From sequence record PZ386969.1: 64,000 nt of DNA; one strand, 5' to 3'. Shown piece by piece: positions 3,601-18,715 of this stretch. Within the stretch, counting starts at the first letter, position 1; the number at the start of each line of letters is the position of its first letter. Under the pieces are notes generated by a model. It did not search any database and was not told where the DNA came from. It saw only the letters and a list, made by a program, of their open reading frames with translations. Both the position numbers and the translations under genes were made by a program. This DNA is from a phage.

Positions 3601-6600
3601 TTATGCCAGAGCAATCAAACGGAAATCTTTGAATGACGGCGGTGCTATGCGGTTGCCTCTGACCAGCAGGCGGATCTTCAGGCCAACGAAAGGATTGGTG
3701 CTGTCTACAGTCTTGTCATACTCATATTCGAAGAATGTAGAACCGTCATTGACCAGAGGGGATGTCGGTGCCACAGTTTCCCATGCCACATTATCCATCT
3801 CCTGGCCTGCGCGCAGCAGTTTAACCTGCACAGTCATTGAAGACTGAGAAGGTAGCATCGCGCCGAAGTATTGCTTCAGAGTGGTGCAAGGGTTATCGAA
3901 TCCGATATCCTTGGTCACATAGCTGAACACATCTTCAAACGGATCCACACCGTAGGTGTTGAAGATGATAGTGAAATCATCACCGTCGATCATTGGAGCC
4001 GTGTAGACATTACTCTCGTTGCGAGTCATGGTTGCACGAACCTGGAAGTCGCCCACCTGACGATAGATACCTTCTGTCTCCAGAGACACGTCCGTGTCGG
4101 ATTCGAACTCAACCCAATCAGAGAATGAGTTGGAGGTCGCATCGCGATAGCGGTATTCCAGTTTCAATACAGATCCTTCTAGGGCTGAATTGGTGACGCT
4201 TGCGTAGAACATGTCTACCAAGTAGTTGCCTAGGAAAGAAGCCGCTTCACCACCAATCTGACCGTCGGAGTCGGCGTTGGAACTCAGAACGAATTTGAAC
4301 GTCGTGAACGTCGCATCAGTCACAGTGTGTTGAGCGTTCAGTTGCTCAGGAGTGAAACCGCAACCACCCGTCAACCCAGACAGAGTAACACTTTCACCCG
4401 CAGTCAGGCCATGCCCCGGAGCGTACACAGTAACAGTTGAAGAACCGTTGACACATTTCACGGTGTTCAGACCCAGAGGGCGGATCTTCGGACCGACTTT
4501 AGCATCGAAGGTCACGATGTTTGAACCAGCGGAGAAGTTACAGCGATACACACGGAACTTCATATCGGCAGTCTGGTTTGGAGTCCAGGTCGTACCATTT
4601 GAAGATGTGAAGAACACGCCAGTGTACGGCTGTTTGGCAATGAACTCGTTGGTCAGCAAGTTCTTCTTACCCATCTCTGCGATGTATGCGTTGTAGTCCT
4701 GAGTGTTGGCCAAGAGAACAATCGCGAACTCAGTCTGCGCCTGCAGATACACAGGATAATCAAACTTGAACATCGTCGGCACAGAAGAGTCTGTGGAGAT
4801 GGAAACTTCTGATGGATTCAGAGTCTTACGAGTGACGACAGTCGTCGCTGGCAGACCATTGCTCATCTCACGGATTTCCAGAGTGATCGGGATATCACGG
4901 GACTTGGTAGAGAAGAACACTTCAATACCTTCGATGTATTCGCCGCCGATATTGGTGGCAACCATGAAGGACTGGGCGATAGGATCTTTCCACTTCGCGA
5001 CTTCAACCGTCTCTGTTTTGTTTTCCGTAGACTTGGTCGCAGTGTATCCCAGGACGCGAGTGTTGACATAAGTCTTCTGGATGCCCTGTTTCTTGCCGAA
5101 GGACTTATGAACAGCCTCGGCATTGGTCAGGGTATCATCAGCAGACTTGCTATCCACAGGACTGTCAGTCAGACGGAAGACGTTGTCGCCCGTGTTAAAC
5201 TTGATAGTCTCGTTCTGAGGAACCGCAAACACACCTTTGATGTTGCCGTTGGCATCAGTGTTCAACGCACCACCCAGTACACCACCGTTTGGGGTACAGT
5301 ACGCGCTCACATCACGTCCAGAGAAGAACGGATACACACGAGTGAACGGACGTAGACCTGTGGCTTCGAAGTTGATATTCGTTTTGCGCATGTATGGGAT
5401 TACCTGCGTTTCAACGATCTGCTCGCCAGTCAGGGTAGTGGTCGTCTTGTCGGTGTACGTGTACGTGGTGACGTCACGGGTAGACACAGTCGTGCGGTAG
5501 CGATAGCCCCACCATACACCACCTGCACCATGCGGTTCCCACACACGCTCAGACACAGACACAGTACGCCATGTGCCATACACAGAACCTTCTTTGATCG
5601 CACCACGGGTGTTGATCGTTTCGTTGATCACACGTGGGGTGACATAGTAGTTCTCAAACCAGTAATCAGTAGTCGGGTTCAGCTTCAAGAAGCCTTCCCA
5701 GTTGAACACCGCATACGGGTTCACGTTGATGGTCGTGGTTGCATAGTCCTGGCGGACAGAGATCTCACGGGTGTAGTTGCATACAACCATGCCATCCTGA
5801 ACGTTGTTCCAACCGACTGGCGTCAGGTCAATCGCGTTCTGCTGAACAAACGGGCGTAGGCGACCATTGTCAGTGTCGATTGAACCCACCCAGTCTGCAG
5901 ACAAATCGTCGATCAGACGGAAGTCTTTGAACGGGTCTGCTGCGATACCGTTCTTGAAGCGCGGGTTACCAGTAATTGGATCGAACACCTGTTGTGACAT
6001 CGCCGAGGATTCCAGCTGAGACAGTGAGGTGTAATATTCGACATTGGAGATACGGGTCTCCAGTTTACCGATATCGCGCATCGTGTAGCGGCGGTTGTCG
6101 ATAGTACGAATCTGGATGTCGTCAATGTTGGCCGTGTATGGTGGGATCATCAATTCATACAGGCGCATGCCGTTGTCTGGGATCGCAGGGGAAGCCAGGT
6201 TGTTGGAACTCACACCACGAGCAACGTTGAACACGCCGTTGTCTGCCAGATACACAGCATCAATACGAGGCAGATAGTACTCTGCATCTAGGATGATCGC
6301 GGTGTTCGGACGAACCATGTCCGTGTCAGACGCTCCGCTGGTGATCTTGGGACGGAAATCCAGACTGTCGGCCAATCCATACACAGTACCAGAACTGGAT
6401 GAAACATAGTTCGGGATGTCTGGGTAGTTGATGGACGAATAGGAGTCCGCTGTGAAGAAATCACCAGAGCTGTGAGCGAAATACTGATACACCACCGTGA
6501 ACGTCCCTGAAATGGCTCCTGTGGACGATATGAGGTTAGAAAGGTAGTATGCCGCATCGCGTTGACCACCGTCCAGAGTGAAGTTCGAGGTGACGTCAGC

Positions 6601-8439
6601 GCCATTTGCGTTCTTCACGCTGATCAGCTTGTAACCATCATGGTTCCCAAGTTGTGCGCTGGCCGCCGCAGTAAACGTCACAGTCTCGGTGGCTTCGGTA
6701 ACAGTCTTGGTCTTGATCGTCGCTGTGGTGCGGACCATCAATGCCAACAGGTTGATAGACTGGTTGGCATACCCCGCACCCAGGGAAATCTGCAGTGCTG
6801 AACCAACCGGAGTACCAGCCAGGGACAGTCCCGAAGAGATATCAAACTGAGCTGCAGTGCCATCTGCCTTCGCTGCGGAGTACAGTGAAAACTCAGGGCT
6901 GAAGCTGTAACCCAGAGGAGCAGAGATTGAGCCTGCACCAGCGGCGTTCAACGTGATCTTGTTTGACCGCAGGACGGTGTAGTTGATGTCGATGGTGCCT
7001 GTAGGTGCTAGAGTCTTCACACCAAATACAGGCAGAGGGAAGATCAGGTCAATTGCTGAACTCTGGCTGAACTGATTGGACTCCAGTTCGCAGGAGAACA
7101 TGGTTGTGCCGCTTTCTTCGTATGCAACTTTGGTAACAGTACCCATGTCCCCAGTCACAACCAGGTCGCGCATATACAGACGGAATTCAGTACCGGAGCG
7201 CTCTGCCGAAATCAGCAGGGCGGTGGCCTGCACATCGCTGGATGCGTTCAGGAACTTGTAGCGGATTGTGCGGGAGACAACCGGAACCCCTTTGGAGTTC
7301 TTGGACACCAGATAGTTGCCAGTCGAAACAGCCACAGGGTTGTTGTTCAGGATATCAGTGTCACGGGCTTTGTCAATTATGACCAGCTCTTCGCCGAGGT
7401 TTTCGATACGACGACCACGAACGTAGGAAATGCCTGGCTTCATAACAGCCACGAATTTGCTTTCATCACCACCTTCAGCCGGAGTGTATACGCCACCGTT
7501 GTTGTTCTGTTTCAGATGTTCGCGTAGGTCGATCTGGTGAGTAGAGACGTTGTAGTCACCATTGGTCTCATAGGTACGCTGAGCCATGGCGTCTTCGAGG
7601 ATGTTGTATGTTGACTGGGTGACCATGGACTGAATGCGACCGTCTTTCACCTTCGCCAGTTCGACGAAGTCGGCCACTTCTTCATCATAACCGTAGCGAG
7701 ACAACACGAGGTCGACGCGCAGGCGATGCGCACCAGGGGCTTTAGAGTTCGGAGTACCCTGAGCATTGGAGAACAGACTTTCATCTTCTGCTTCAGTCAC
7801 GATTGTTTCTGTAACTTTGAAGCCAATGCGGTGAGATGTAGAGTTCGATGCGTTGTCTACGATCAAAGTGGTTGGTTCAACATCCAGGAACATACCACGA
7901 ACGAAATAAACACCCTTTGTCATGCGAGCGACAATCGAACCGCCAACAGTATCGGCCACACCATAGCCGACACGGATGAAGTTATCGTTCACGTCATAGG
8001 TGTTGAAGTATAGATTGTCACCAGCTTCGAAACCGTCTGAACTACCACTCTCAGTCATCTCTAAGATGGCATACATTGTATCCGGCTCAGCTGGATAACG
8101 TTCCAAGGACAGGACGCGTGCTTTCGCATTGTTGTCCTTGCCCAGAACATAGAGTTCGGAGATACCTTCCAGATCAGTGAACTCACTACCGCCAGCCAGA
8201 GTGAACTTCATGGACACAGCAGTGTTGGTGATCGTTAGGCCGCCGGGGATAACCATTGAACCGTCTTTGAACAGATGGTTGCCAAGTTTCTCCAGTTGAT
8301 CCTGGAAGATGGTCTGCATCTGGTTCAGTTCACGCGTCTGAACTTTGATAGGTGCCGGACGGAATAGGATGCGCGAAAAACGCTTCTCTGGATTCCAGTC
8401 ATCCCAATATGGGCGGCGGTTGAGGTTCATTTCTTGCAT
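3601..8439 (-). CDS. very large virion structural protein (~1612 aa), Thr/Ser/Gly-rich, likely baseplate or fibre component
   Basis: track start 8487 is TTG; first ATG at 8439 has GGAG 7 nt upstream; composition and position in structural operon. Confidence 0.6.
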   Translation of the reverse strand: MQEMNLNRRPYWDDWNPEKRFSRILFRPAPIKVQTRELNQMQTIFQDQLEKLGNHLFKDGSMVIPGGLTITNTAVSMKFTLAGGSEFTDLEGISELYVLGKDNNAKARVLSLERYPAEPDTMYAILEMTESGSSDGFEAGDNLYFNTYDVNDNFIRVGYGVADTVGGSIVARMTKGVYFVRGMFLDVEPTTLIVDNASNSTSHRIGFKVTETIVTEAEDESLFSNAQGTPNSKAPGAHRLRVDLVLSRYGYDEEVADFVELAKVKDGRIQSMVTQSTYNILEDAMAQRTYETNGDYNVSTHQIDLREHLKQNNNGGVYTPAEGGDESKFVAVMKPGISYVRGRRIENLGEELVIIDKARDTDILNNNPVAVSTGNYLVSKNSKGVPVVSRTIRYKFLNASSDVQATALLISAERSGTEFRLYMRDLVVTGDMGTVTKVAYEESGTTMFSCELESNQFSQSSAIDLIFPLPVFGVKTLAPTGTIDINYTVLRSNKITLNAAGAGSISAPLGYSFSPEFSLYSAAKADGTAAQFDISSGLSLAGTPVGSALQISLGAGYANQSINLLALMVRTTATIKTKTVTEATETVTFTAAASAQLGNHDGYKLISVKNANGADVTSNFTLDGGQRDAAYYLSNLISSTGAISGTFTVVYQYFAHSSGDFFTADSYSSINYPDIPNYVSSSSGTVYGLADSLDFRPKITSGASDTDMVRPNTAIILDAEYYLPRIDAVYLADNGVFNVARGVSSNNLASPAIPDNGMRLYELMIPPYTANIDDIQIRTIDNRRYTMRDIGKLETRISNVEYYTSLSQLESSAMSQQVFDPITGNPRFKNGIAADPFKDFRLIDDLSADWVGSIDTDNGRLRPFVQQNAIDLTPVGWNNVQDGMVVCNYTREISVRQDYATTTINVNPYAVFNWEGFLKLNPTTDYWFENYYVTPRVINETINTRGAIKEGSVYGTWRTVSVSERVWEPHGAGGVWWGYRYRTTVSTRDVTTYTYTDKTTTTLTGEQIVETQVIPYMRKTNINFEATGLRPFTRVYPFFSGRDVSAYCTPNGGVLGGALNTDANGNIKGVFAVPQNETIKFNTGDNVFRLTDSPVDSKSADDTLTNAEAVHKSFGKKQGIQKTYVNTRVLGYTATKSTENKTETVEVAKWKDPIAQSFMVATNIGGEYIEGIEVFFSTKSRDIPITLEIREMSNGLPATTVVTRKTLNPSEVSISTDSSVPTMFKFDYPVYLQAQTEFAIVLLANTQDYNAYIAEMGKKNLLTNEFIAKQPYTGVFFTSSNGTTWTPNQTADMKFRVYRCNFSAGSNIVTFDAKVGPKIRPLGLNTVKCVNGSSTVTVYAPGHGLTAGESVTLSGLTGGCGFTPEQLNAQHTVTDATFTTFKFVLSSNADSDGQIGGEAASFLGNYLVDMFYASVTNSALEGSVLKLEYRYRDATSNSFSDWVEFESDTDVSLETEGIYRQVGDFQVRATMTRNESNVYTAPMIDGDDFTIIFNTYGVDPFEDVFSYVTKDIGFDNPCTTLKQYFGAMLPSQSSMTVQVKLLRAGQEMDNVAWETVAPTSPLVNDGSTFFEYEYDKTVDSTNPFVGLKIRLLVRGNRIAPPSFKDFRLIALA

Positions 8440-8469
8440 TTTGATGCTCCATCGATAGGTGCCATTATA

Positions 8470-8482
8470 GAGATATTTAGTA
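8470..8482 (-). promoter_or_regulatory. late-promoter-like CTAAATATCT upstream of the large structural gene
   Basis: minus-strand CTAAATATCTCTATAATGG about 35 nt before the ATG. Confidence 0.4.
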
Positions 8483-8647
8483 TACAACCAACCGAGGAAT
8501 AGAAAGAAATAAGCCCGAAGGGGCTTTGATTATCTTTCTGTGGTTATGGTCATGGATTCGAGACCTCTGCCATTCATGGTAGATGGTATTCAATTAGGTA
8601 TGTTTAATATATCAGGTCAGACTATTACCTTAACTGCTGTATCGATT

Positions 8648-8680
8648 AGGGTAATGCAAACAGTAAACTCTATATAAAAA
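8648..8680. repeat. ~35-nt conserved element downstream of a tailspike gene (copy 1; copy 2 at 13505..13540)
   Basis: AGGGTAATG(C/A)AAACAGTAAACTCTATATAA shared at both loci, each just 3-prime of a tailspike stop. Confidence 0.6.
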
Positions 8681-8695
8681 GTATTATTAATAAGT

Positions 8696-8728
8696 AAAAA
8701 CAACCCCATAGAAGTGGGGTTGTTTTTA
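8696..8728. terminator. bidirectional rho-independent terminator
   Basis: AAAAACAACCCCAT-AGAA-GTGGGGTTGTTTTT. Confidence 0.6.
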
Positions 8729-8740
8729 AGTGATTATTAC

Positions 8741-10657
8741 TTACATAACAACTGCGGCAGATATGTATCCTGAATCTTGATACGATCCAGAAAGGTCAAA
8801 AACTTCTAAGTTAAAAGAGTCAGGGGATGTACTTACGACATTAATTACTAATTTCCCTCCGCTAGTGGTATTGCCAACACTGCATAAAACAGCATAAGCA
8901 GAGGAGGGCATAGTATTAGATAGGTTGACGGTATATTTACCGGTCCCGGTTTTAGTTACAGTTGCTCCATCCGCATACACTGACGACCCCGAAATTCCAT
9001 TAAAATTGATCATTGCCCGTGTACATGCACTCGACCTTTTTGCGACGGTAGACCCAATAAATGCGTATTCTTGGGCCTTGTTAATATAAATCTTATTAAC
9101 AGAAGTGTCAGGTACTTGTAAGACGTTATCTATAACAACATTACAGGCTGTTGCTCCAGATACGGTAGAGCATCTATCTATCTCATAATTGTCGATATTA
9201 ATAGCCCTTACAAAACCTATACCCCCAAATGCTGACCAGTTTTGTTTAACAAGAACACCGGAAATACCGGACAGGAAAATAAGATCGCCTGTCGTATCTT
9301 TGCTAAACGTGTTGTTGGTTATTGAAACAGAAGAAGAACGCGGTGAGTGACTATCATCTGCAACATATACCCTGGCTAAAGAAGAAGCAGTATTCTCTTC
9401 AAAGTAGTTACCATCTACCAGTAACTGCTGTGCACCCCCGGCGACAACACCTACGTCATAGCCCGTGTTTGCTTCAAATAGAGAGTCTCTGACTATGAAA
9501 TTTCGTACACTACTTGCAGTACCTGAGTCTCCGATAAGAACACCGTTAACACCATCAAAGAAAGTACAATTATCAACTTTAACTACGTTGATATCTACTT
9601 TTGACGTTTTTACACCATTTGCACATTTAGCGAAATAGCATGAAGTTAGCTCAGCCACCCCGGAAAAATAGTCTGGGGCGTCGTAATGTAAATAAACACC
9701 GTACCGGGCGTTTCTGACAACGCAATCTTGAAGTTTTAGGTACCAAGCCCCTCCGAAATCAAAACCATCAGACGATGAGTCCTGAATATCCAAGAAAAGT
9801 CCAGAAATCTTAGCTCCTATCGCACCACCTTGAACCCGAATGGCGGGTGACGCTAACCCGGTAAACTTAATTACTGAACCTGTTGTTTGGTCATTAACAT
9901 GTCCAAAACTATTACCAACAATACATAGACTATCAGTGGCAGTTATGATTAAAGTAGAGCTTATAAGATAAATACCATCCGGTATGTATAAACTCTTTTT
10001 CGAATCTATTGCTGCCTGAAACGCGGCGGTATCATCGGTCACACCGTCGCCAACAGCCCCGAAGTCCTTGACTGACACCAGGTCTTTATTTTTATCATGT
10101 AGTGTTCGCTTAATGGAGTTGGCCAGAGGTGACTTAAATCCGACCAGACCAGCGCCATCATCAGATGCAAGATTGATTCTCAAGGCTGCATCACCAACAC
10201 TAACCCACTTGTCTAACCCAGTACCTCCAGCACTTTCAGGAGTTGAGCCAGAAGAAACGGTTTTAGGTAACTCACCATCCCAGCGATACTTACCTGTTGT
10301 ATGGGTAAGCAATTCATTTTTAACATTAAGTGTAGCACCATTGTCAAACGACCCAGACAATGTAACGTATTCTTCACGAGATACGGCTAATTCCCCAAGA
10401 TCTACGGAACCAGCTGAATGTACAAGTACGGCATTAGTACCAAGACTTACAGCAGTCACCCCCGAACCAATGTCAGCAGGCAAGGAATAGGCACGCTGAG
10501 TAGCCTTATCATAAATTACTTTGTAACCACCTAAGTCTACACCTACAGCAAAGTAGACTACCTCATTCTGTTTAACACCAAACTTACGGGCAATGGCTTG
10601 CTTATTGGTAAGAATACCAGTAGAGCCTTTACCACCTTGTGAGAACATTTCGTTCAT
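8741..10657 (-). CDS. tailspike protein (638 aa), conserved N-terminal region plus beta-helix-like body
   Basis: N-terminal block VVYFAVG..GYKVIYDK..VLVHSAGSVDLG..REEYVTL..RWDG shared with the two neighbouring genes; repetitive C-terminal body; AAGAGG ribosome site. Confidence 0.75.
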   Translation of the reverse strand: MNEMFSQGGKGSTGILTNKQAIARKFGVKQNEVVYFAVGVDLGGYKVIYDKATQRAYSLPADIGSGVTAVSLGTNAVLVHSAGSVDLGELAVSREEYVTLSGSFDNGATLNVKNELLTHTTGKYRWDGELPKTVSSGSTPESAGGTGLDKWVSVGDAALRINLASDDGAGLVGFKSPLANSIKRTLHDKNKDLVSVKDFGAVGDGVTDDTAAFQAAIDSKKSLYIPDGIYLISSTLIITATDSLCIVGNSFGHVNDQTTGSVIKFTGLASPAIRVQGGAIGAKISGLFLDIQDSSSDGFDFGGAWYLKLQDCVVRNARYGVYLHYDAPDYFSGVAELTSCYFAKCANGVKTSKVDINVVKVDNCTFFDGVNGVLIGDSGTASSVRNFIVRDSLFEANTGYDVGVVAGGAQQLLVDGNYFEENTASSLARVYVADDSHSPRSSSVSITNNTFSKDTTGDLIFLSGISGVLVKQNWSAFGGIGFVRAINIDNYEIDRCSTVSGATACNVVIDNVLQVPDTSVNKIYINKAQEYAFIGSTVAKRSSACTRAMINFNGISGSSVYADGATVTKTGTGKYTVNLSNTMPSSAYAVLCSVGNTTSGGKLVINVVSTSPDSFNLEVFDLSGSYQDSGYISAAVVM

Positions 10658-10678
10658 AACGACCTCTTTGTTTTTCTA

Positions 10679-10701
10679 AGAAACCCCGCCGAAGCGGGGT
10701 T
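10679..10701 (-). terminator. GC hairpin with CTTCGG-type loop between tailspike genes
   Basis: AACCCCGC-TTCG-GCGGGGTT on minus strand after stop of gene 10706..13210. Confidence 0.5.
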
Positions 10702-10705
10702 AGTT

Positions 10706-13210
10706 TTACGAGTAAGCACTCTCGAACTTACAAAACCAGGTTGCTCCTTCATCAGTTGTTGACAACCTAAAAACTTGTGTTCCAGCTGCTGTCAAAGATG
10801 GGGTATTGCTTGCTAATTTAACATTTGCACCAAATGTTATTGTTTTAGATGTTGTTGAACAGACAGCCAAAAGAACCTCAACATAACCAATTAGTGTATT
10901 TGTTAATACTGCTGGAGTTATTGTTACATCTCCTGTAACTGTAGCTGCGATGTAAGATGCGTCTGAAAAGTCAGGCGCATAACTTGCTGTTGGCGTCTCG
11001 AACTTTGGATTTCTTACCAATACAGGAACTCCAACATTTTTCCTGAAAATTGTACTATTGCAAACCATATCATACTCTATACCAACAAAATTCTTAGCTG
11101 CAAGTATGTTAGTAAATGTCTGGTCCGCAGAGTAAATATGAGTTATCAGCCTTGCCACCCATGCTGGTGAGTTTGAGTTTTCACACTCAATGAATGAACA
11201 GTTGATACTACCAACGGCGAATGGCATTAGTGATGCCGTATATGAAGATAGCCCTGCGTCATTAAACGCATTCATATTCACAAACGTCTGGCATTGAGAG
11301 AACGTATTACCGGTGGCTCCACCATCAATAAAAAAGCCAATCCCGCCGTTAATATAACCATCTACAGGATCTAAATTAGCTTTCGCGTAGTCCCATTTTG
11401 ATGGAGAATCTGCAAAACATTGATTGAAGGAATTGTTTATTGAGTTCTGTACAACAAAGCAGCATTTCATCCTTGAGTTCTGGTCAGTGACTGTATCGTC
11501 ATACATGCCCCAGTTGTGCACCTTACTAATTCTGTTATTGCCACCACCACGAACCCAGGTACCAAATCGGAAATAACGACCTTCACCCATACTAACCTGA
11601 TGATCGCTACCTTCAACAATGTGGGCTGTGCTGAGTGGATTAGTTGGTTTTAATACACCAACAGCATAAAACTTCAATAGGTGCACACCCATACCGCCAG
11701 CAATATGGATGCCATGACCATCAATATTGGCTACGTAAATGCCATCTAACTTGTTGGCATAACCATCAGATATTTTAAATCCATTAACAGTTTTTGCACG
11801 GGCATCAATTAAAAGATTGCTAATGTGCCCAGCGTATTGATTACCTGTACCTTTATCACACTTTACAGCATAACCAGATGAGTCTGCTATGAAGTCATCT
11901 GTCAGGTATACCCCACCGAAACCAGCATCAATGCTAACATCTCCGTGAATGTGTAGTGTCGTACTGATAGGATATTTCTTCCCATTCAGCCTGATAACTT
12001 TGCTTACAGTGTTAGGTTGTAGCCAGTCAGGATGGTTAGCAGCACTACTTGGTGCATGTTCTAAACCTGTTAAAGCTGCCGCAGCATCAATCGCATCCTG
12101 TAATGATGGATACATATCCGGGTTGACATTTATAATTTTCTTAAGCGCATTGCCAACAGTACCAGTTTCGTAATCAATTGACTTATCAAAACCTGAAAAA
12201 CCTGCTCCTGTAGGTTTAGCCAATTCTGACTTCAATGAAGCATCACCAACACTAACCCATGCACCTGTTCCAACACCACCGGTTGATGTAGTGGTTGAGT
12301 CAGCGGGGACAACTTTAGGTAGTGCACCCTCCCACGTATAGCACTGACCACCAGCGATGTGCCAAACAGCATCCGTTTCACTATTAACTGTTGCACCTTC
12401 TTCAAAGCTACCAGCAACGAGAGATAAACCTGCTTCTGCAAGTAAACGTCTCCACAATTCTCTGGTATTCGACTCTTGATGAGTAGGTAACAAAGTAACA
12501 GTAATATTACCTGGATTGTACGTTAACTGCCCATTACTAACGGATGAGATGTATATGTTAGAGGGTAATGAAGGTAACCCATATGACTTCTGCTCACTAA
12601 CAGAGTAGACAATCTTTTTACCATTCAATAATTGCGTAGTGTCAGTGCTAAGAATTACTTCACTGTCCTTAACGTTAGTTGCACGAGCGATTTCTTGAAT
12701 ACTTCGGTCAAACAACGGACTGATATTCGGTTGTTTAACAGACATTTCAGCGACTACCCAAACGCCTGCAGTCAGCGCAGTTTGTAAAGACACTTTCCCT
12801 GTCGTGCTGTCATAGGAATATTCAATTTCGGGTGTTTTGTACTCACCACCGATATAAAGAGATTGGACTCCATAATATGTGTAATCAGGAGTGAACTCGG
12901 TTTCACCTCCTATAGCCTGAAACTTATAGATTCGAACCCCGGTTTTATAATCTTCTGGAGACAGAATCTTATCAAACAGACAGAACACAACGTCACCTTT
13001 GGATAATGCGCGTCCGAGATTCAACGTATTTCCATCGATTTCAAAGTTGTCTAACGGAACTTGCATGCCACCGTTGATTGTGACTATACCAGTGACAGGG
13101 TAGAAAGGGAGGGAGATAAACTTCTCTCCACCCGTTGCTGTGTAAGTGTATGGAATCTGGTGCGGAGCTGTTACGACCGCTCCAAAGATGCTCTCGACGT
13201 TTCTGGTCAT
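10706..13210 (-). CDS. tailspike protein (~834 aa from second ATG)
   Basis: shares N-terminal conserved block with neighbours; second ATG at 13210 has GGGG ribosome site while ATG at 13225 lies inside the hairpin. Confidence 0.75.
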   Translation of the reverse strand: MTRNVESIFGAVVTAPHQIPYTYTATGGEKFISLPFYPVTGIVTINGGMQVPLDNFEIDGNTLNLGRALSKGDVVFCLFDKILSPEDYKTGVRIYKFQAIGGETEFTPDYTYYGVQSLYIGGEYKTPEIEYSYDSTTGKVSLQTALTAGVWVVAEMSVKQPNISPLFDRSIQEIARATNVKDSEVILSTDTTQLLNGKKIVYSVSEQKSYGLPSLPSNIYISSVSNGQLTYNPGNITVTLLPTHQESNTRELWRRLLAEAGLSLVAGSFEEGATVNSETDAVWHIAGGQCYTWEGALPKVVPADSTTTSTGGVGTGAWVSVGDASLKSELAKPTGAGFSGFDKSIDYETGTVGNALKKIINVNPDMYPSLQDAIDAAAALTGLEHAPSSAANHPDWLQPNTVSKVIRLNGKKYPISTTLHIHGDVSIDAGFGGVYLTDDFIADSSGYAVKCDKGTGNQYAGHISNLLIDARAKTVNGFKISDGYANKLDGIYVANIDGHGIHIAGGMGVHLLKFYAVGVLKPTNPLSTAHIVEGSDHQVSMGEGRYFRFGTWVRGGGNNRISKVHNWGMYDDTVTDQNSRMKCCFVVQNSINNSFNQCFADSPSKWDYAKANLDPVDGYINGGIGFFIDGGATGNTFSQCQTFVNMNAFNDAGLSSYTASLMPFAVGSINCSFIECENSNSPAWVARLITHIYSADQTFTNILAAKNFVGIEYDMVCNSTIFRKNVGVPVLVRNPKFETPTASYAPDFSDASYIAATVTGDVTITPAVLTNTLIGYVEVLLAVCSTTSKTITFGANVKLASNTPSLTAAGTQVFRLSTTDEGATWFCKFESAYS

Positions 13211-13215
13211 TTGAA

Positions 13216-13255
13216 GATACCCCATAGAGGATTTGCCAATATGGGGTATTTAGTC
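13216..13255 (-). promoter_or_regulatory. late-promoter-like CTAAATACCCC with inverted copy GGGGTAT covering the translation start
   Basis: perfect 10-bp inverted repeat ATACCCCATA/TATGGGGTAT. Confidence 0.5.
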
Positions 13256-13290
13256 TGAACTAATAAATTTATGAACAAAGGTATAACAAG

Positions 13291-13310
13291 AACCCCGCCA
13301 AAGCGGGGTT
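13291..13310. terminator. GC-rich hairpin
   Basis: AACCCCGC-CAAA-GCGGGGTT. Confidence 0.4.
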
Positions 13311-13318
13311 TGACACTC

Positions 13319-13492
13319 CTATTCCAGACACATTTCAAAATGTATACCAACATCACCCCACCCATCATAAACAGACGACCCCGATATTCTTGATCCATCT
13401 ATGTTGGCGAAATAAAAATACGCTGACCCATCATTGATATCACCTATAAAGTTCTTATACCCGTTTGATGACAACCCGAGAGAGAGCCAACA
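13319..13492 (-). pseudogene. possible relic of a tailspike C-terminal segment (no start codon)
   Basis: minus-strand frame gives ...ANIDGSRISGSSVYDGWG...; the heptapeptide ISGSSVY also occurs near the C-terminus of tailspike 8741..10657 (NFNGISGSSVYADG). Confidence 0.3.
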
Positions 13493-13504
13493 GCATTATC
13501 AATC

Positions 13505-13540
13505 AGGGTAATGAAAACAGTAAACTCTATATAATAAAAG
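13505..13540. repeat. conserved element downstream of tailspike gene (copy 2)
   Basis: see 8648..8680. Confidence 0.6.
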
Positions 13541-13562
13541 CCCCCAAAATTGGGGGCTTTTT
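13537..13562. terminator. bidirectional rho-independent terminator
   Basis: AAAGCCCCC-AAAATT-GGGGGCTTTTT. Confidence 0.6.
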
Positions 13563-13568
13563 ATTATA

Positions 13569-16500
13569 CTACCAGTAATACCAATCACCTTTTTTACTTC
13601 TGACTAGAATAGAACAATCGGTAACAGCTACTGTAGACACCCCACCAATCCTTATCTCATACAGTTTACTAGGCAATCTTTTCTTAGTTAGAGAGACTTT
13701 AAAATCTGTACCAGTTACAGTGATATATTCCGTCCCATCCTCACTATCTATCTGTAAATCTAGGCCGCTGGGACTTGCTGGGAGCTTAACATAAAGCTGT
13801 TGTTCTGCTGTACTACCAGCAAAATGACCGATAACTGTAGATGTCCACTCACTTAAAGTCAACCCTGAACGCACAAAGTCTACATTGAGCGGTTCCTTAA
13901 TAAGTGCAGCAGGTGCATTGTAATTATGCCCGTTAAGTACATAGTAGTTGCTGCTACCAACCTCTACTGTGTCTGCTGTGCAGTAAGAGTGGAAGGTTTT
14001 TGCGTTATCAAAGCGATATAGACTTCTGATTAGCACACGCTCTTGATTGCTTCTGGTTAAAATGCCACAACCTGCGGAAAGGTGGAGTGTGGAGATGGTA
14101 AGCGTATGACTTTCACTGTTGGCCTTGGATGACAGCAATGACACCTTGGGTTCACCCTCTTGAGTAAAGTCTTTACTATTACCCTCACAGTACATGACCC
14201 CAATGTCCCACGCAGCAGGGTCCATTGTTACTACCCCAGCACCTGCCGTATTCTCAGAGCAAATCACACCAACACTGGTAGACAAACCACGACCTAAGAT
14301 AATACCAGCACCTATTGTATATTTACTCGCATCATCCGTGATTGGGTCATAACCTAGTCCCGTAGACTTATCAGTACCCCATGCACTAATGTGAGGGAAG
14401 TGTGTAGCATTCACATAGGTATCCCCTTGCTCACCTTCTGTTGAATAACCTAATGCCATACCCCTTGCACAGTTGTTTGCATGGAGAGTGCCCATTTGAA
14501 AATACCAGCAAGCAAACATTACAATGCCATATCTATTAGCATTATATGCATAGATGCTACCCATCTCAGATTCTGCACACAGAAGACGTGCATAAAAACC
14601 ATATGATGCAATATCTGCACAGTCTACGTTTAAGCTACCGATTAAGCGTAATCCTCGCACTTGATTCTCTGTATTAGCCACATCCACTGTTGCTGTACCG
14701 ACAGGAAATTTACTAACGCGTACAACAGCTTTTAACGTAGGCCATACGGAGCCAATTGCTTTAATTGTTGCCCCGTTTAGATTCCCACGTAAGTAAGAAG
14801 GTATAACAACCTCATCCGTTACGTGGTAGGTAGAATTCCCATTCAGATTTAATGTACCTGTGGCTATAGCTAGTTTTATAGCAGGTAAACAGTCAAAACT
14901 AGGGTCATTGGGGATTGCACCAAAATTCTCAGGTGAGTGTTCATTAAACCCTGTTAGCTTACCAACGTTAGTCCAAGAAGAGTCTGGGGCAGCACCATAA
15001 CTAACAGGTAGTGTCCCATTGTACTTGTACCAGAACCCATCTGAATGTAGAACAACCTGATATTTATCGGATACATTCCCACCATCACCGAATACACCGC
15101 TCTTTTTGTAAAGAGACAGACTACCGGAATCAATAAGAGAAGAACCTTTCCAGGAGGCTAAACGTTGCTCTAATCCAACAACACCAACTACAAGCCATGC
15201 CCCTGGACCAACACCTCCTGTACCCAATGGGGTAGATTCTGGAGGGACTACTTTGGGTACAGAACCATCCCAACGATATTTAATATCGTTACTCACAACC
15301 AACTCATTCTTGGTATTAACAGTTACACCTGTATCGAATGAACCAGGTAAGGTCACATACTCCTCACGAGATACGGCTAATGCGCCCAGATCAACACTAC
15401 CAGCAGAATGCACAAGTACAGCCGAAGAACTAAGGCTGACTGCCGTGGTTCCAGTCGGTAGCTCTGGAATAAAATATGATCTCTGTGTTACTTTATCATA
15501 GATAACTTTATACCCGCTTAGCACAGCACCAACACTAAAATAAACGACCTCTGTATCTTTAACATTGGTTACACGAGCCACTTCCCGCAAAGTATGATCA
15601 ATTTGATTATAGATGTTTGGTGTTCCATTGATAATTACAACAACTTCATCTTCTGGTTCCAGTTCTTGCGCCAGAGTGATTTTACTGGTTAATGGATCGA
15701 ATGTGAATCCCAGATTTTTATACTGACGACTTCCGTTTATATCAATGGCCGGAACATCATCAACAACGACGTCCAACGTGATTTCGGTTTCACCGCCAAT
15801 CGCTGAACCCCCATTATAGACCCAAGTAATCGTAGAAGAACTAGAACCACCGCCATTACCCAATTGAATAGGAGTATATTCAATCACCTGAAGTTCTGTG
15901 CTGGCTGGCAAAGAAGGACTGAAAGTGATTACATTCCCATCTAGTGAATATTTGGATTCCGCAAGGCGTTTTCCGTCAGCATACACGTCCACGATTGTTG
16001 GTGGAGTATTGAGAGTGACAGTACTTGTTTCAGACGCCAAAATTTTTGTAAAGATTTCACGACTGTAGACACGGCCTTGGCCAAGACCGACGCCGGATGT
16101 AATAATCCAACCTTGTTCAGGTCCAGACCAAGTGAACGTTGCTGATACGTTATCAGTTGTTATAGCCATGTCTTCAGTGGAGCCATACAAATTATTTCCA
16201 GAAGGAGACACGGTCAATGGGTAAGTGGCAAATTTCCCATAAGCATCACAAATAGTAACGGAATCCCCAATACGCGTAGGGGAAGGGAGAACCACTGTAG
16301 ATGCCCCTGTGGTATTATTAATGAGATAGCCTCGCCCTTCAGTGAGCGTTGCCGTAGAGGCATGCGGAAGGACTTCCCAGCGGATGCCACCGCCACCCAG
16401 CGGCAACCAACCACCATTTTCGTAATAACCTTCGAATTCGTCGGAGTCGGCATTGTAGCGAACGGAAGACGGGAGTCCTGCGCTGGCATTACCCTCGGGT

Positions 16501-16622
16501 AAAGTCAGGACAGCATCTGGTCCATGCTCAATCGTACCCGTGTTGAGGACACCAGCCAAAGTAGACTGCTCTTCAGCCGCCAGACCGAGAGGGAAAACAG
16601 GCTGTGTTGGTTTATTAGCCAT
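13569..16622 (-). CDS. tailspike protein (~1017 aa from second ATG)
   Basis: N-terminal conserved block (VVYFSVG..GYKVIYDK..VLVHSAGSVDLG..); long repetitive body; start chosen at ATG 16622 after GGGGTATTTGAA. Confidence 0.75.
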   Translation of the reverse strand: MANKPTQPVFPLGLAAEEQSTLAGVLNTGTIEHGPDAVLTLPEGNASAGLPSSVRYNADSDEFEGYYENGGWLPLGGGGIRWEVLPHASTATLTEGRGYLINNTTGASTVVLPSPTRIGDSVTICDAYGKFATYPLTVSPSGNNLYGSTEDMAITTDNVSATFTWSGPEQGWIITSGVGLGQGRVYSREIFTKILASETSTVTLNTPPTIVDVYADGKRLAESKYSLDGNVITFSPSLPASTELQVIEYTPIQLGNGGGSSSSTITWVYNGGSAIGGETEITLDVVVDDVPAIDINGSRQYKNLGFTFDPLTSKITLAQELEPEDEVVVIINGTPNIYNQIDHTLREVARVTNVKDTEVVYFSVGAVLSGYKVIYDKVTQRSYFIPELPTGTTAVSLSSSAVLVHSAGSVDLGALAVSREEYVTLPGSFDTGVTVNTKNELVVSNDIKYRWDGSVPKVVPPESTPLGTGGVGPGAWLVVGVVGLEQRLASWKGSSLIDSGSLSLYKKSGVFGDGGNVSDKYQVVLHSDGFWYKYNGTLPVSYGAAPDSSWTNVGKLTGFNEHSPENFGAIPNDPSFDCLPAIKLAIATGTLNLNGNSTYHVTDEVVIPSYLRGNLNGATIKAIGSVWPTLKAVVRVSKFPVGTATVDVANTENQVRGLRLIGSLNVDCADIASYGFYARLLCAESEMGSIYAYNANRYGIVMFACWYFQMGTLHANNCARGMALGYSTEGEQGDTYVNATHFPHISAWGTDKSTGLGYDPITDDASKYTIGAGIILGRGLSTSVGVICSENTAGAGVVTMDPAAWDIGVMYCEGNSKDFTQEGEPKVSLLSSKANSESHTLTISTLHLSAGCGILTRSNQERVLIRSLYRFDNAKTFHSYCTADTVEVGSSNYYVLNGHNYNAPAALIKEPLNVDFVRSGLTLSEWTSTVIGHFAGSTAEQQLYVKLPASPSGLDLQIDSEDGTEYITVTGTDFKVSLTKKRLPSKLYEIRIGGVSTVAVTDCSILVRSKKGDWYYW

Positions 16623-16624
16623 TT

Positions 16625-16666
16625 CAAATACCCCTAAATGTGTTCGTTTCATCTAGGGGTATTTAG
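16625..16666 (-). promoter_or_regulatory. late-promoter-like CTAAATACCCC with inverted copy immediately before the ATG
   Basis: perfect 11-bp inverted repeat AAATACCCCTA/TAGGGGTATTT. Confidence 0.5.
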
Positions 16667-16668
16667 TT

Positions 16669-17859
16669 TTAGAAAGAAGCTACAATAGAATAATCGACCG
16701 AACAAGCAGTTGTTGTATTCGCATTAACAACGGAAACTCTCAATTTACCACCCACCACAGCCCCTGTGAACGTCACTGTACCGCTCGTACTTTTCTGAAC
16801 CAACAACTCCGACTTGATAGTTCCGTCGCGAGTTATGGTTACTCGATATGTATCAACAACGTTACCTGTTCCCCATTGCGCGGTCACCAGTATTTGACAA
16901 AGGTTCACCAAATCAAAATCTGGAAGAGCCGTCGTCCCAGAAGCCGAAACCGTGTAAGAAGACAAATTCGTTTTGGTACGATAAACGGCGTTCCCTAAAC
17001 TATTGTCGACAGAGGTCATCTTGGCATTATACGTTGATACGCTAACTTTATCACTGGAAAGAGAACTGATGCTGTTATCCAGAGATGACATCTTCGTGTT
17101 GTACGTGCTAACCTCGACTTTATTACCCAGAGACGTATTGATATTGGAGATACTCAAATCCAATGACGCCATCTTCGTGTTGTAAGTCGAGGTGTTAACT
17201 TTCCCGTTTAACGATGTGTTGATGTTATTGATTCGGGACTCTAGACTCAGCATATCTGCGTCATACGCTGTCGTTGTCACATATCCATTAAATCGGTTAT
17301 CTGCAAACAACGCATCAAAAAATGCAGTCATTGTCCAATAACGCGCTCCAGAATCTGTTTGTACTGGAATTGAAGTTGGCATCGTTGATCCGGTATACGC
17401 AGACAATCTGGTGAAATCCAAATTGAATTTGTAATATCCGGATGTCAACAACTCCCCAGCCAAACCAGAACCAGGTGGGGTAGTGTCTTCACTGACACCA
17501 TGCTTTCTCAACATGCTCAGGTTAACACCATCTGTCGCTATCGTAGGCTCATCCACGATAGACAGTTTCTTCCCAGCCGGAACAGTCAGGCCGCCGTTGG
17601 CGGTCAACAACGCAACAAAAGTCTTGCTCCCATTGATCGTTTGTTCACCACCGTCGGTGCGGATCACTTTGTTTTTCAGTGTGTCGTAGATATTATCCAC
17701 AGAACGCTTCAGCTCGTATGTCAGATGAGCTGAAGGAGGGAACAACGGATCATCAACAGCGAAATCGTTGACAACATCAGTCTTGCTTATTTTATCGTCA
17801 ACAGAAGAAAGGATTGCATCAATCTGCTGACCTGTGTATCGACTCAGAAAATCGGCCAT
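16669..17859 (-). CDS. tail fibre protein with three tandem ~21-aa repeats (396 aa)
   Basis: repeat units INNINTSLNGKVNTSTYNTKMASLD / ISNINTSLGNKVEVSTYNTKMSSLD / SDKVSVSTYNAKMTSVD; sits between baseplate and tailspike genes. Confidence 0.6.
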   Translation of the reverse strand: MADFLSRYTGQQIDAILSSVDDKISKTDVVNDFAVDDPLFPPSAHLTYELKRSVDNIYDTLKNKVIRTDGGEQTINGSKTFVALLTANGGLTVPAGKKLSIVDEPTIATDGVNLSMLRKHGVSEDTTPPGSGLAGELLTSGYYKFNLDFTRLSAYTGSTMPTSIPVQTDSGARYWTMTAFFDALFADNRFNGYVTTTAYDADMLSLESRINNINTSLNGKVNTSTYNTKMASLDLSISNINTSLGNKVEVSTYNTKMSSLDNSISSLSSDKVSVSTYNAKMTSVDNSLGNAVYRTKTNLSSYTVSASGTTALPDFDLVNLCQILVTAQWGTGNVVDTYRVTITRDGTIKSELLVQKSTSGTVTFTGAVVGGKLRVSVVNANTTTACSVDYSIVASF

Positions 17860-17860
17860 T

Positions 17861-18715
17861 TTAACTCCTTGAACTTTCTAGGAATACAGTAAACCCAGCA
17901 GGATGGAAATGCTGACGGAAGACGCGATCAAACACACCTTCAAAATCAGATACGTTGCCAGGAACTCTTATCACATACGTGAATTCATCATAGTAGTAAT
18001 CGTCACGCATTCCTGTCGCGCCGTCACATTCAAAGTTGTCATCCAGGCCACCAATTTCTTCCTTGGGATAATACACACTCACTGGGCAACCAAAGTAAAT
18101 CCAGAAGAACAATTCAATCGCTTTCTTCGTCCCGCGAATGCGATAAATGTGTTTAAGTAACTTCAACCAGCGTACATGGTCCAGTGTCCGGCGTTCAGTT
18201 CCCTCGACATACACAGAGAGAGTGTCTCCGTCTGAAGTCACCAAACTGTCCGAACCAACTGGCACAAACTTCCCGAACTCCAGGAAGGACTTATCAACCG
18301 TTCTCTGGAATCCAAAATCAGCATACCAATCGTCGATGCGTTCGTTCTTGTCTTCCATTGAGATTAATGGCCGACCGTCCACGTCCAGCAAATCTTCGAA
18401 GTCTAGCGCCATCATGTTCTCAAACGTGCGCGTCAGGAACTTGTCTTCCAAGAAGTCTTTGGCCTCAGTACCTGGCGTCTTGCGCTTCTTGATGTCAATC
18501 AACTGCTCAATAGGAGACTGATCCGTATTTGGGTTCACCCAGCCACCAGTGTCTGCCAGATACGCCAAGATCTCCTCTTCGGTGAATCCCTGCTGGCGGT
18601 ACAACCAGTTGAAGAACGTATCCATAAACTCGATGAATACTGGGAATTCATTCTGGTAAAACAATGGGGTTTCATATTTCACCCCATTGTGTCCGTTATT
18701 AAGATCTTTGGACAT
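17861..18715 (-). CDS. baseplate protein, putative (284 aa)
   Basis: position between a large J-like gene and the fibre gene matches the common myovirus J-I-fibre order; no motif confirmation. Confidence 0.35.
   Translation of the reverse strand: MSKDLNNGHNGVKYETPLFYQNEFPVFIEFMDTFFNWLYRQQGFTEEEILAYLADTGGWVNPNTDQSPIEQLIDIKKRKTPGTEAKDFLEDKFLTRTFENMMALDFEDLLDVDGRPLISMEDKNERIDDWYADFGFQRTVDKSFLEFGKFVPVGSDSLVTSDGDTLSVYVEGTERRTLDHVRWLKLLKHIYRIRGTKKAIELFFWIYFGCPVSVYYPKEEIGGLDDNFECDGATGMRDDYYYDEFTYVIRVPGNVSDFEGVFDRVFRQHFHPAGFTVFLESSRS

Follow-up and report, generated by a model that had tools for sequence, protein, structure and literature searches.

The presence of three tandem genes for tailspike-like proteins in a phage genome raises the question of whether they encode independent spikes or the members of a single branched receptor-binding complex, and, in the latter case, how many of its docks are in use. 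This question is addressed here for a stretch of phage DNA of 64,000 nucleotides (PZ386969.1; hereafter, the window), which makes visible 64 kb of a genome of roughly 155 kb. Between positions 17000 and 40000, the window shares 96–97% nucleotide identity, with a coverage of 87–93%, with the phages RPN242, fGh-Ecl02, vB_CECAV_050, A221, and YX22, and about 90% identity with Shigella phage Ag3. Among them, vB_CECAV_050 is a classified Agtrevirus, and the source phage, with a GC content of about 50%, is an Agtrevirus-like myovirus (Ackermannviridae, Aglimvirinae). Its spike cluster very probably encodes a three-membered branched receptor-binding complex of the type known from phage CBA120.

Three tandem tailspike genes had been claimed from the sequence alone, and three tandem ORFs were indeed found on the minus strand, at 13569..16652 (gene A, 1027 aa), 10706..13225 (gene B, 839 aa), and 8741..10657 (gene C, 638 aa). 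The three proteins match PHROG tail-spike families, with E-values from 0 to 1e-111, and, as judged by position and sequence, they are orthologues of the CBA120-type spikes TSP4, TSP2, and TSP1, respectively. The cluster is flanked by VriC and baseplate genes (Table 1), the canonical context described for the spikes of Ackermannviridae (PMC11721090), and the proposal of a branched multi-tailspike architecture is supported by these orthologous scaffolds in that context. The true start of tsp4 is probably 16622 rather than 16652, the annotated TSP4 proteins of YX22, A221, LHE287, and AV101 starting with MANKPTQ; that of tsp2 is probably 13210 rather than 13225. Exact-sequence look-ups of genes A, B (with both starts), and C returned no identical record.

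Table 1. Features of the spike cluster and its surroundings (positions in the window; AD, anchor domain).
Feature	Position	Strand	Remarks
DUF4815/VriC-like gene	3601..8487		Downstream of the spike cluster
Bidirectional terminator hairpin 3' of tsp1	8695..8728	-	From a scan; 14–15 bp stem
tsp1, peripheral spike	8741..10657	-	D1 aa 1–95, D2 aa 96–172, body aa 173–638
Hairpin between tsp2 and tsp1	10683..10700	-	Fold -15.1 kcal/mol, z -3.6
tsp2, second branching spike	10706..13210	-	Probable start M6; ORF to 13225
TSP2 receptor-binding body, aa 344–839	10709..12196	-	Predicted beta-helix
TSP2 shared block: D1 (TSP2-type) and D2 module	12197..12697	-	Recombination junction near aa 243–297
TSP2 XD2 (about aa 22–88) and XD3 (about aa 97–163)	12737..13162	-	6W4Q match; approximate boundaries
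Conserved cassette (roughly 75 nt) upstream of tsp2	13226..13310	-	Scan-detected terminator hairpin 13291–13310, CTAAATACCCC motif 13243–13253, leader hairpin
Terminator-like hairpin directly 3' of the tsp4 stop codon	13537..13560	-	RNA fold -21.3 kcal/mol, z -3.9
tsp4	13569..16622	-	Probable start M11; mechanical ORF to 16652
TSP4 receptor-binding body, aa 508–1027	13572..15131	-	Window 13570–14989 common to Kayfunavirus gp17
TSP4 D1-D2 head, aa 356–507	15132..15587	-	Internal; tblastn match 15587–15132
TSP4 gp10-like XD1 (about aa 90–191), XD2 (about aa 197–262), and XD3 (about aa 274–346)	15615..16385	-	7REJ/7RFO/7RFV match
TSP4 baseplate AD, aa 11–85	16398..16622	-	Putative boundaries
tsp4 leader	16617..16668	-	CTAAATACCCC motif 16656–16666 forms an arm of the 16-bp hairpin
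Baseplate genes (three)	16669..17859, 17861..18715, 18699..20528		Upstream of the spike cluster; a gp6-like wedge gene among them

Residues 11–348 of TSP4 match the CBA120 TSP4-N structures 7REJ (E = 5e-198) and 7RFO (E = 3.7e-197) through the anchor and XD1–XD3, and residues 353–524 match TSP4dN (5W6H). Residues 11–350 are 97–99% identical to TSP4 of YX22, A221, LHE287, and AV101, a level at which the N-terminus is conserved in five relatives. The AD is in residue-for-residue register with that of CBA120, with an offset of +10, and is followed by a GGGG linker at residues 86–89; the CBA120 linker is Gly76–Gly79 (PMC8825819). The limits of the XD domains were set from the CBA120 constructs N181, N250, and N335 (PMC8825819) together with Gly/Ser linkers in the translation.

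Similarly, residues 6–249 of TSP2 match residues 1–245 of CBA120 TSP2 (6W4Q, E = 1.6e-127) in the order XD2-XD3-D1, and residues 6–250 are 90–95% identical to TSP2 of AV101, A221, CECAV_050, LHE287, and YX22; residues 104–163 align with XD3 of TSP4 (residues 284–342). TSP1 holds D1-D2 at its true N-terminus, as expected for a D1-first spike, and its residues 1–217 match residues 1–209 of CBA120 TSP1 (4OJ5, E = 2.3e-86), the match to CBA120 TSP3 (5W6F, E = 2.3e-72) being weaker. By sequence, the D1 of gene C is clearly of the TSP1 type and not of the TSP3 type, since it shows 83–88% identity to the TSP1 of relatives versus 65–68% to their TSP3.

The comparison with characterised multi-tailspike phages, proposed at the outset as a check, supports the branched interpretation through the CBA120 matches 7REJ, 6W4Q, and 4OJ5. 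The scaffold domains and their order are alike in Escherichia phage CBA120 (Kuttervirus; 4OJ5, 6W4Q/5W6P, 5W6F/6NW9, 5W6H, 7REJ) and in the window, namely AD-XD1-XD2-XD3-D1-D2 in TSP4, XD2-XD3-D1 in TSP2, and D1-D2 in TSP1, as are the flanking genes and the beta-helix nature of the bodies, which is only predicted for that of TSP2. However, CBA120 holds four spikes instead of three, all three bodies differ, TSP2 of the window carries an extra D2 module, and the phage belongs to another subfamily, Aglimvirinae. A likeness is also found in the two-spike complex of G7C (gp66/gp63.1) and in gp10 of T4, which share the XD2/XD3 jellyroll docking principle and the PF18668 head, while using another particle anchor and having two partners rather than three; T4 gp10 binds gp11 and gp12, not tailspikes (PMC8825819).

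The region common to the three proteins corresponds, as judged by profile matches, to the D1-D2 head (TD1-TD2, PF18668). In BLASTP, TSP4 residues 356–507 share 59% identity with TSP1 residues 20–172 (E = 1e-48), TSP4 residues 284–506 share 34% with TSP2 residues 104–343 (E = 1e-25), and TSP2 residues 177–500 share 29% with TSP1 residues 20–316 (E = 1e-22). All three spikes exceed the gathering threshold of 25 bits for PF18668 (Tail_spike_N, the TSP1/Gp66 head domain), with 79.7 bits in TSP4 (residues 426–490, E = 1.8e-22), 74.0 bits in TSP2 (residues 272–328, E = 1.1e-20), and 72.4 bits in TSP1 (residues 91–156). A homologous block, far beyond chance, had therefore been rightly noticed in the sequence-only reading, but its description as N-terminal holds for TSP1 alone: the block starts at about residue 356 in TSP4 and 177 in TSP2, where 170–350 residues of other domains precede it. 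Likewise, the motif string given for it (VVYF.VG..GYKVIYDK, VLVHSAGSVDLG, REEYVTL, RWDG) occurs in TSP4 and TSP1, but not in TSP2, which carries a diverged version (IVYS, YTWEG).

This position bears on how the spikes are attached. If the block were a common attachment domain, the three proteins could be independent tailspikes, each fixed to the baseplate or tail through it. The presence of PF18668 and D1 in all three proteins is compatible with such an arrangement, and the D1 part of the block does attach in homologues, D1 of TSP1 docking on XD3 of TSP4 (PMC11414711, PMC8825819). This docking role has been demonstrated for the TSP1-type D1, not for the internal head of TSP4 and TSP2, and CBA120 TSP1 binds TSP4 and not the baseplate (PMC8825819). 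Besides, the domains responsible for baseplate attachment and spike–spike binding in CBA120, namely the anchor and the XD domains, are intact in TSP4 and TSP2. Independent attachment is thus extremely improbable. The block is not a common N-terminal attachment domain but, in TSP4 and TSP2, an internal head, and by analogy with CBA120 branching would be accomplished by the anchor and the gp10-like XD2/XD3 domains that precede it.

In CBA120, XD2 of TSP4 docks with TSP2, and XD3 of TSP2 docks TSP3 (PMC11414711, PMC8825819). Given the orthology and domain order observed here, and with docking partners and trimer formation transferred from CBA120, TSP4 would form the trunk, with its N-terminal anchor domain fixing the complex to the baseplate; its XD2 would bind XD2 of TSP2, and its XD3 the N-terminal D1 of TSP1. 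Each spike would consist of a D1-D2 head, a neck, and a distinct trimeric beta-helix body. Each body would bind one surface polysaccharide (O-antigen or capsule) and, if the glycanase activity of CBA120 extends to it, probably cleave it, so that the three bodies could allow one virion to use three receptors.

Contrary to the type example, which has TSP1–4, the cluster lacks tsp3, and therefore the XD3 dock of TSP2 is most likely empty. The 343-nt gap between tsp4 and tsp2 (13226–13568) holds no tsp3 remnant, every frame being interrupted by stops and none giving a translation that resembles a spike, and is homologous to the tsp4-tsp3 intergenic region of AV101 (95% identity for the stretch after tsp4) and to the 3' flanks of G7C-like spike genes. 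The missing fourth spike is not disqualifying, because three-spike members have been documented: the Escherichia phages LHE287 (PP761450) and A221 (ON862890), both Agtrevirus-like, show the same order (baseplate, tsp4, tsp2, tsp1, VriC), the same absence of tsp3, the same tsp2 cassette, and scaffolds 88–99% identical to those of the window, differing in all three bodies, and so in specificities, and in a TSP2 that lacks the D2 module. Three-spike clusters also occur in other genera (PMC8432352).

Alternatively, XD3 of TSP2 might be occupied by a second TSP1 trimer or by a spike encoded outside the window, which would result in a four-armed complex with three or four specificities. This XD3 is apparently intact, with 34% identity to that of TSP4, and the TSP2 N-terminus is 90–95% identical to those of four-spike relatives. 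The similarity of the gene C D1 to that of TSP3 makes cross-docking conceivable, and the view of the genome extends to 64 kb. Nevertheless, this D1 is nearer to TSP1, docking in CBA120 is selective, proposedly via differently charged binding surfaces (PMC8825819), no D1-D2-like locus beyond these three is found within the 64-kb window, and relatives keep all their spike genes in one cluster. An occupied dock is consequently considered unlikely, and the three-armed complex is retained.

Regarding the receptor-binding portions, the divergence of the bodies stated in the sequence-only reading was confirmed, with no significant HSP outside the block between TSP4 and either TSP1 or TSP2; that between TSP2 and TSP1 reaches beyond the block to cover about the first 150 residues of each body, at 29% identity. 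Aligned with hhalign, the profiles of the TSP4 and TSP2 bodies reveal no relationship (probability 0.2%); an earlier probability of 98.6% was due to the head region in full-length homologues and was discounted. The bodies are not repetitive at the sequence level, contrary to what had been stated, as Tandem Repeats Finder detects no arrays, and any repetition is structural, in the form of beta-helix rungs. A beta-helix fold, whose lack would have spoken against tailspikes, has direct evidence in TSP4 and TSP1 and indirect evidence in TSP2. In the TSP4 body, a small D2-like module is followed by a right-handed beta-helix, with a beta domain at the C-terminus. The TSP1 body is pectate-lyase-like, with PF12708 at residues 194–258 (E = 2.7e-14) and similarity to the Sf6 tailspike (E = 7e-12), and it is 99.1% identical to that of YX22 TSP1.

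For TSP2, a beta-helix is suggested by transitive homology: in distant homologues of its body (E = 1e-40 to 1e-17), the aligned region contains PF12708 or PF13229 (Beta_helix), and the family profile matches the Sf6 tailspike (E = 7e-15), as well as GH55 and phi29 gp12. An AF2 model from a 23-sequence alignment reached a pLDDT of 53, and Foldseek found no significant match for this poor model (best E = 0.017), which was therefore set aside. When the PDB was searched with a profile from a shallow TSP2 alignment, the matches were limited to the head domain that homologues carry. Pfam scans of the TSP4 and TSP2 bodies at E-values up to 10 yielded no meaningful family. Conservation alone, outside any validated active site, points to D677, E694, E741, E800, E847, E871, and D882 in TSP4, and D541 and D606 in TSP2, as candidate catalytic residues. 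No receptor serotype emerges from the hosts of body-sharing phages, which are heterogeneous or undefined, and AV101 spikes of known specificity (PMC11414711) match none of the three bodies.

The cluster is a recombinational mosaic of receptor-binding modules known in other phages, in which the conserved scaffolds (anchor, XD, and D1) remain 90–99% identical to those of relatives and the junctions place crossovers within D2 or the neck, as well as at the conserved promoter/terminator cassette. The TSP4 body is 87–89% identical to the C-terminal portion (roughly 510 residues) of gp17 from Kayfunavirus (T7-like Autographiviridae), such as Escherichia phage TM1 (OM908436), with 88–90% DNA identity along 1420 nt as far as the stop codon. 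These are podoviruses with a single fibre type, and their gp17 N-terminus is the T7 gp17 adaptor (PF03906) instead of the anchor/XD/D1 domains. The four-spike phages YX22 (an Escherichia phage, OR776998) and vB_CECAV_050 (a Salmonella phage, PQ306799), with a backbone 96–97% identical, and AV101 (an Escherichia phage, OQ973471), tied to the window by the intergenic stretch between tsp4 and tsp3 and by its TSP scaffolds, differ in carrying tsp3 and lacking this TSP4 body.

The body that YX22 and CECAV_050 hold on TSP4 is found here on TSP2, with 97.8% amino acid identity to residues 500–992 of YX22 TSP4 and 96.8% to CECAV_050 TSP4; at the DNA level, positions 10682–12334 share 95% identity with the 3' portion of tsp4 in YX22. 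Residues 250–345 share 59% identity with D2 of YX22 TSP4, match no TSP2 of any relative, and have no equivalent in CBA120 TSP2, which has D1 only (PMC8825819). The D1-D2 DNA shares 71–74% identity with gp66-type genes from G7C-like phages. TSP2 is an unusual chimera, in which a TSP2 scaffold has gained a D2 and bears a body of the TSP4 type.

Correct folding and assembly of this chimera are assumed here. A recent recombinant that misfolds or is not assembled, leaving the phage effectively two-spiked, would also join a scaffold to a D2 and a body otherwise carried by TSP4, with the junction inside the head. AF2 failed to model the body, and the phage collection holds no full-length counterpart, nor the assembly index an exact copy. 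Such a defect is nonetheless very improbable: the 834-aa ORF is intact, with a conserved upstream cassette and leader, the body is 96–98% identical to those of four isolated, viable phages, XD2-XD3-D1-D2-body is the natural order in G7C gp66-type spikes, and engineered TSP chimeras with head/neck junctions are functional (PMC11414711, PMC9965104).

The cluster is an ordinary member of the well-known and well-studied TSP4/TSP2/TSP1 branched system; its practical value is modest and it opens no new biological question. It adds, at the gene level, a natural example of a three-spike cluster, and another of Ackermannviridae scaffolds accepting bodies that elsewhere occupy a different scaffold position or belong to unrelated podoviruses. 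Its natural crossover points, D2/neck and the intergenic cassette, could guide the host-range engineering already under way in this family with CBA120, S117, and AV101.

The cassette upstream of tsp2 is nearly invariant in seven aligned sequences: YX22 and AV101 have it ahead of tsp3 as well as tsp2, and LHE287 and A221 ahead of tsp2. As a whole it occurs once in the window. It may serve as a joint for deleting or inserting whole spike genes, crossovers in the head domain may shift a receptor-binding body from the trunk TSP4 to the branch TSP2, and the orphan XD3 of TSP2 may be re-used, for instance, by a second TSP1 trimer. Taken together as a natural rewiring route, leading to a re-usable dock on a TSP2 whose D1-D2 head is non-canonical, these steps form an unlikely proposal; if true, the stoichiometry of spikes, beyond their identity alone, would be evolvable.

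A scan for sigma-70 promoters found 19 versus 20 expected, and is uninformative because this count is at background. The CTAAATACCCC motif has been reported for Vi01-like phages (PMC7283392). The leader hairpin of the tsp2 cassette (-17 kcal/mol, z -3.1) ends just before the start codon, and that of tsp4 (-21 kcal/mol, z -8.6) stops 6 nt before the ATG at 16622, whereas the hairpin preceding tsp1 is followed by an AAGAGG Shine-Dalgarno sequence and then by the ATG.

The three minus-strand spike genes can be assigned unambiguously, by sequence matches, to the branched tailspike complex characterized experimentally in Escherichia phage CBA120, as tsp4, tsp2, and tsp1. In PDB sequence searches, residues 11–348 of the first protein match the N-terminal fragment of CBA120 TSP4 (7REJ/7RFO; E 5e-198) and residues 353–524 match the TSP4 head (5W6H); residues 6–249 of the second match TSP2 (6W4Q; E 1.6e-127), and residues 1–217 of the third match TSP1 (4OJ5; E 2.3e-86), ahead of TSP3 (E 2.3e-72). 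Comparison with annotated relatives agrees with these assignments. The first 340 residues of TSP4 are 97–99% identical to their TSP4, the first 245 residues of TSP2 are 90–95% identical to their TSP2, and the D1 domain of TSP1 shares 83–88% identity with TSP1 of LHE287, A221, and AV101 and 69% with that of vB_CECAV_050, versus 65–68% with the relatives' TSP3. Because of these CBA120 and relative matches, together with a conserved leader, the true starts are probably M11 of tsp4 (16622) and M6 of tsp2 (13210).

Similarity places the window among Agtrevirus-like phages of the Ackermannviridae: its positions 17000–40000 are 96–97% identical (coverage 87–93%) to RPN242, fGh-Ecl02, vB_CECAV_050, A221, and YX22, and ~90% identical to Shigella phage Ag3. 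The product of the gene directly upstream of tsp4 (16669–17859; 396 aa; phrog_3838, function unknown) is a baseplate wedge tail fibre connector according to one relative's annotation, and holds three to four imperfect ~20-aa repeats (…STYNTKMxSLDxSIS…).

In CBA120, TSP4 runs from a baseplate anchor domain through the gp10-like XD1–XD3 domains and a D1–D2 head to a neck and a body; TSP2 has XD2–XD3 and D1, and TSP1 and TSP3 start with D1–D2. TSP4 and TSP2 dock through their XD2 domains, while D1 of TSP1 docks on XD3 of TSP4 and D1 of TSP3 on XD3 of TSP2 (PMC11414711, PMC8825819). The register of CBA120 TSP4 is preserved in the window's protein, including the GGGG linker at residues 86–89 (Gly76–79 in CBA120) and a Gly/Ser linker that separates XD2 from XD3. 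The branched multi-tailspike organelle proposed by the sequence-only reading is supported by orthology to CBA120 TSP4, TSP2, and TSP1. All findings here fit that thoroughly characterized system; the specific novelties are limited to the way in which known modules are combined and to the extra D2 of TSP2.

The same reading had described a conserved N-terminal block followed by unrelated, repetitive bodies. The sharing is far above chance: residues 356–507 of TSP4 and 20–172 of TSP1 are 59% identical (E 1e-48), residues 284–506 of TSP4 and 104–343 of TSP2 are 34% identical (E 1e-25), and residues 177–500 of TSP2 and 20–316 of TSP1 are 29% identical (E 1e-22), and Pfam finds PF18668 (Tail_spike_N) in all three at 72–80 bits (cut-off 25 bits). 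The block is N-terminal in TSP1, but begins near residue 356 in TSP4 and near residue 177 in TSP2, and the proposed motif string occurs in TSP4 (residues 369–463) and TSP1 (residues 33–128), whereas TSP2 carries a diverged version. In Agtrevirus EspM4VN, the same 'VIYD' stretch had already been noticed as common to all four spike genes (PMC7283392). By the domain order and docking scheme of CBA120, the block corresponds to the D1–D2 head and would be an attachment domain in the peripheral TSP1 alone; in TSP4 and TSP2, where it is internal, branching is predicted to be the work of the domains preceding it. This corrects the sequence-only reading as to both the place and the function of the block. 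Pairwise comparisons confirm that the bodies are mutually unrelated (hhalign probability 0.2% for TSP4 versus TSP2), but they contain no tandem repeats at the sequence level.

The body of TSP1 matches PF12708 (pectate-lyase-like) directly (E 2.7e-14), and it also matches the Sf6 tailspike over that protein's first rungs. The structure model of the TSP2 body has a pLDDT of 53, and a fold search with it gave no significant match. An exhaustive HMMER search retrieved 40 relatives of this body; PF12708 is present in 13 of the 32 aligned members and PF13229 in one, overlapping the TSP2-aligned segment in every homologue whose coordinates were checked, and the family profile matches a GH55 glucanase, the Sf6 tailspike (E 7e-15), phi29 gp12, and AlgE epimerases, from which we infer a beta-helix for the TSP2 body. 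Of the 32 sequences in that alignment (TSP2 plus 31 distant relatives), eight have a Peptidase_S74 intramolecular chaperone domain at their C-terminus; TSP2 itself has none.

The spike cluster is mosaic in origin. TSP1 is an orthologue of YX22 TSP1, with bodies 99.1% identical. Alignments indicate that TSP2 is a chimera: YX22 tsp2 matches positions 12498–13290 (91% nucleotide identity) and the 3' part of YX22 tsp4 matches 10682–12334 (95%). At the amino-acid level, the body shares 97.8% identity with that of YX22 TSP4 and 96.8% with that of vB_CECAV_050 TSP4. The two parts meet within the head, at residues 243–297. The D2 module of this protein is absent from TSP2 of the relatives and of CBA120, and its D1–D2 DNA is 71–74% identical to gp66-type genes of G7C-like podoviruses. 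The TSP4 scaffold, as judged from its matches, is native, and positions 13570–14989 are 88–90% identical to the 3' end of T7-like Kayfunavirus gp17, the match stopping at the stop codon. Two Kayfunavirus (T7-like coliphage-type) genomes, MT350292.1 and MT350293.1, are deposited as 'Enterococcus phage EFA-1/EFA-2' and flagged UNVERIFIED_ORG; this host label is probably wrong. A near-identical tsp4 occurs in a 157.6-kb Ackermannviridae-like contig (ABJPJW010000008.1) of a Salmonella enterica assembly (GCA_026553415.1), which is 96–99% identical to the window over 13217–16200 (tsp4 and downstream spacer), but only 70–82% in the flanking baseplate genes; in its record, tsp4 is annotated as truncated (866 aa). 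That receptor-binding domains move from one spike position or genus to another, and are exchanged with distant phages, is established for this family (PMC8432352, PMC11721090). The GC content of the spike region (8001–16000) is 42–43% versus ~50% in the remainder of the window, consistent with module import from lower-GC phages.

YX22, vB_CECAV_050, AV101, and the Salmonella contig hold four spike genes, whereas the three-gene order of LHE287 and A221 is identical to that of the window, and three-spike clusters are documented in Kuttervirus and Limestonevirus (PMC8432352). The 64-kb window holds no fourth D1–D2-like locus, tblastn with the TSP1 head returning only the three spike loci. TSP2 keeps an intact XD3 in a window without tsp3, so the docking site for TSP3 is probably unoccupied; that this XD3 is re-used is a minor alternative.

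Coordinates of the spike cluster and associated elements
Feature	Position	Strand	Remark
tsp4 ORF	13569–16652	-	1027 aa
tsp2 ORF	10706–13225	-	839 aa
tsp1 ORF	8741–10657	-	638 aa
DUF4815/VriC-like gene	3601–8487		1628 aa; downstream of spike genes
Baseplate gene	16669–17859	-	upstream of spikes
Baseplate gene	17861–18715		upstream of spikes
Baseplate gene	18699–20528		upstream of spikes; gp6-like
Hairpin	13537–13560		after tsp4
Hairpin	10683–10700		after tsp2
Hairpin	8695–8728		after tsp1
Cassette	13226–13310		last 85 nt upstream of tsp2
Cassette copies, four-spike relative L001	3809–3888, 7192–7285
Cassette copies, four-spike relative L008	~9150–9257, ~11640–11743
CTAAATACCCC	13243–13253	-
CTAAATACCCC	16656–16666	-
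CTAAATACCCC	26714–26724	+
CTAAATACCCC	26739–26749	-
CTAAATACCCC	27209–27219	+

In four-spike phages, a nearly invariant cassette of ~75–85 nt precedes tsp3 as well as tsp2; three-spike phages have it before tsp2. This duplication, and the fact that the high-identity block common to the Salmonella contig and the window ends inside the cassette, suggest it as a plausible joint at which recombination between the direct repeats could insert or delete tsp3. The cassette contains CTAAATACCCC, reported as a regulatory motif in Vi01-like phages (PMC7283392) and found five times in the window (0.65 expected). A strong hairpin (-17 to -22 kcal/mol; z -3.1 to -8.6) with the motif as one arm precedes tsp4, tsp2, and the ORF at 26748–27212. 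As the other arm, GGGGTAT, sits 1–9 nt upstream of the ATG of these genes, the motif may act as an RNA leader structure, alongside or in place of a promoter role.

Downstream of tsp4, two terminators enclose a 225-nt spacer (13312–13536), one frame of which resembles a C-terminal protein remnant (…DGWGDVGIHFEMCLE*), for which no homologue was found. The spacer is 95% identical to the tsp4–tsp3 intergenic region of AV101, and over its first 82 nt it is similar to sequence that flanks spike genes of G7C-like podoviruses on the 3' side.
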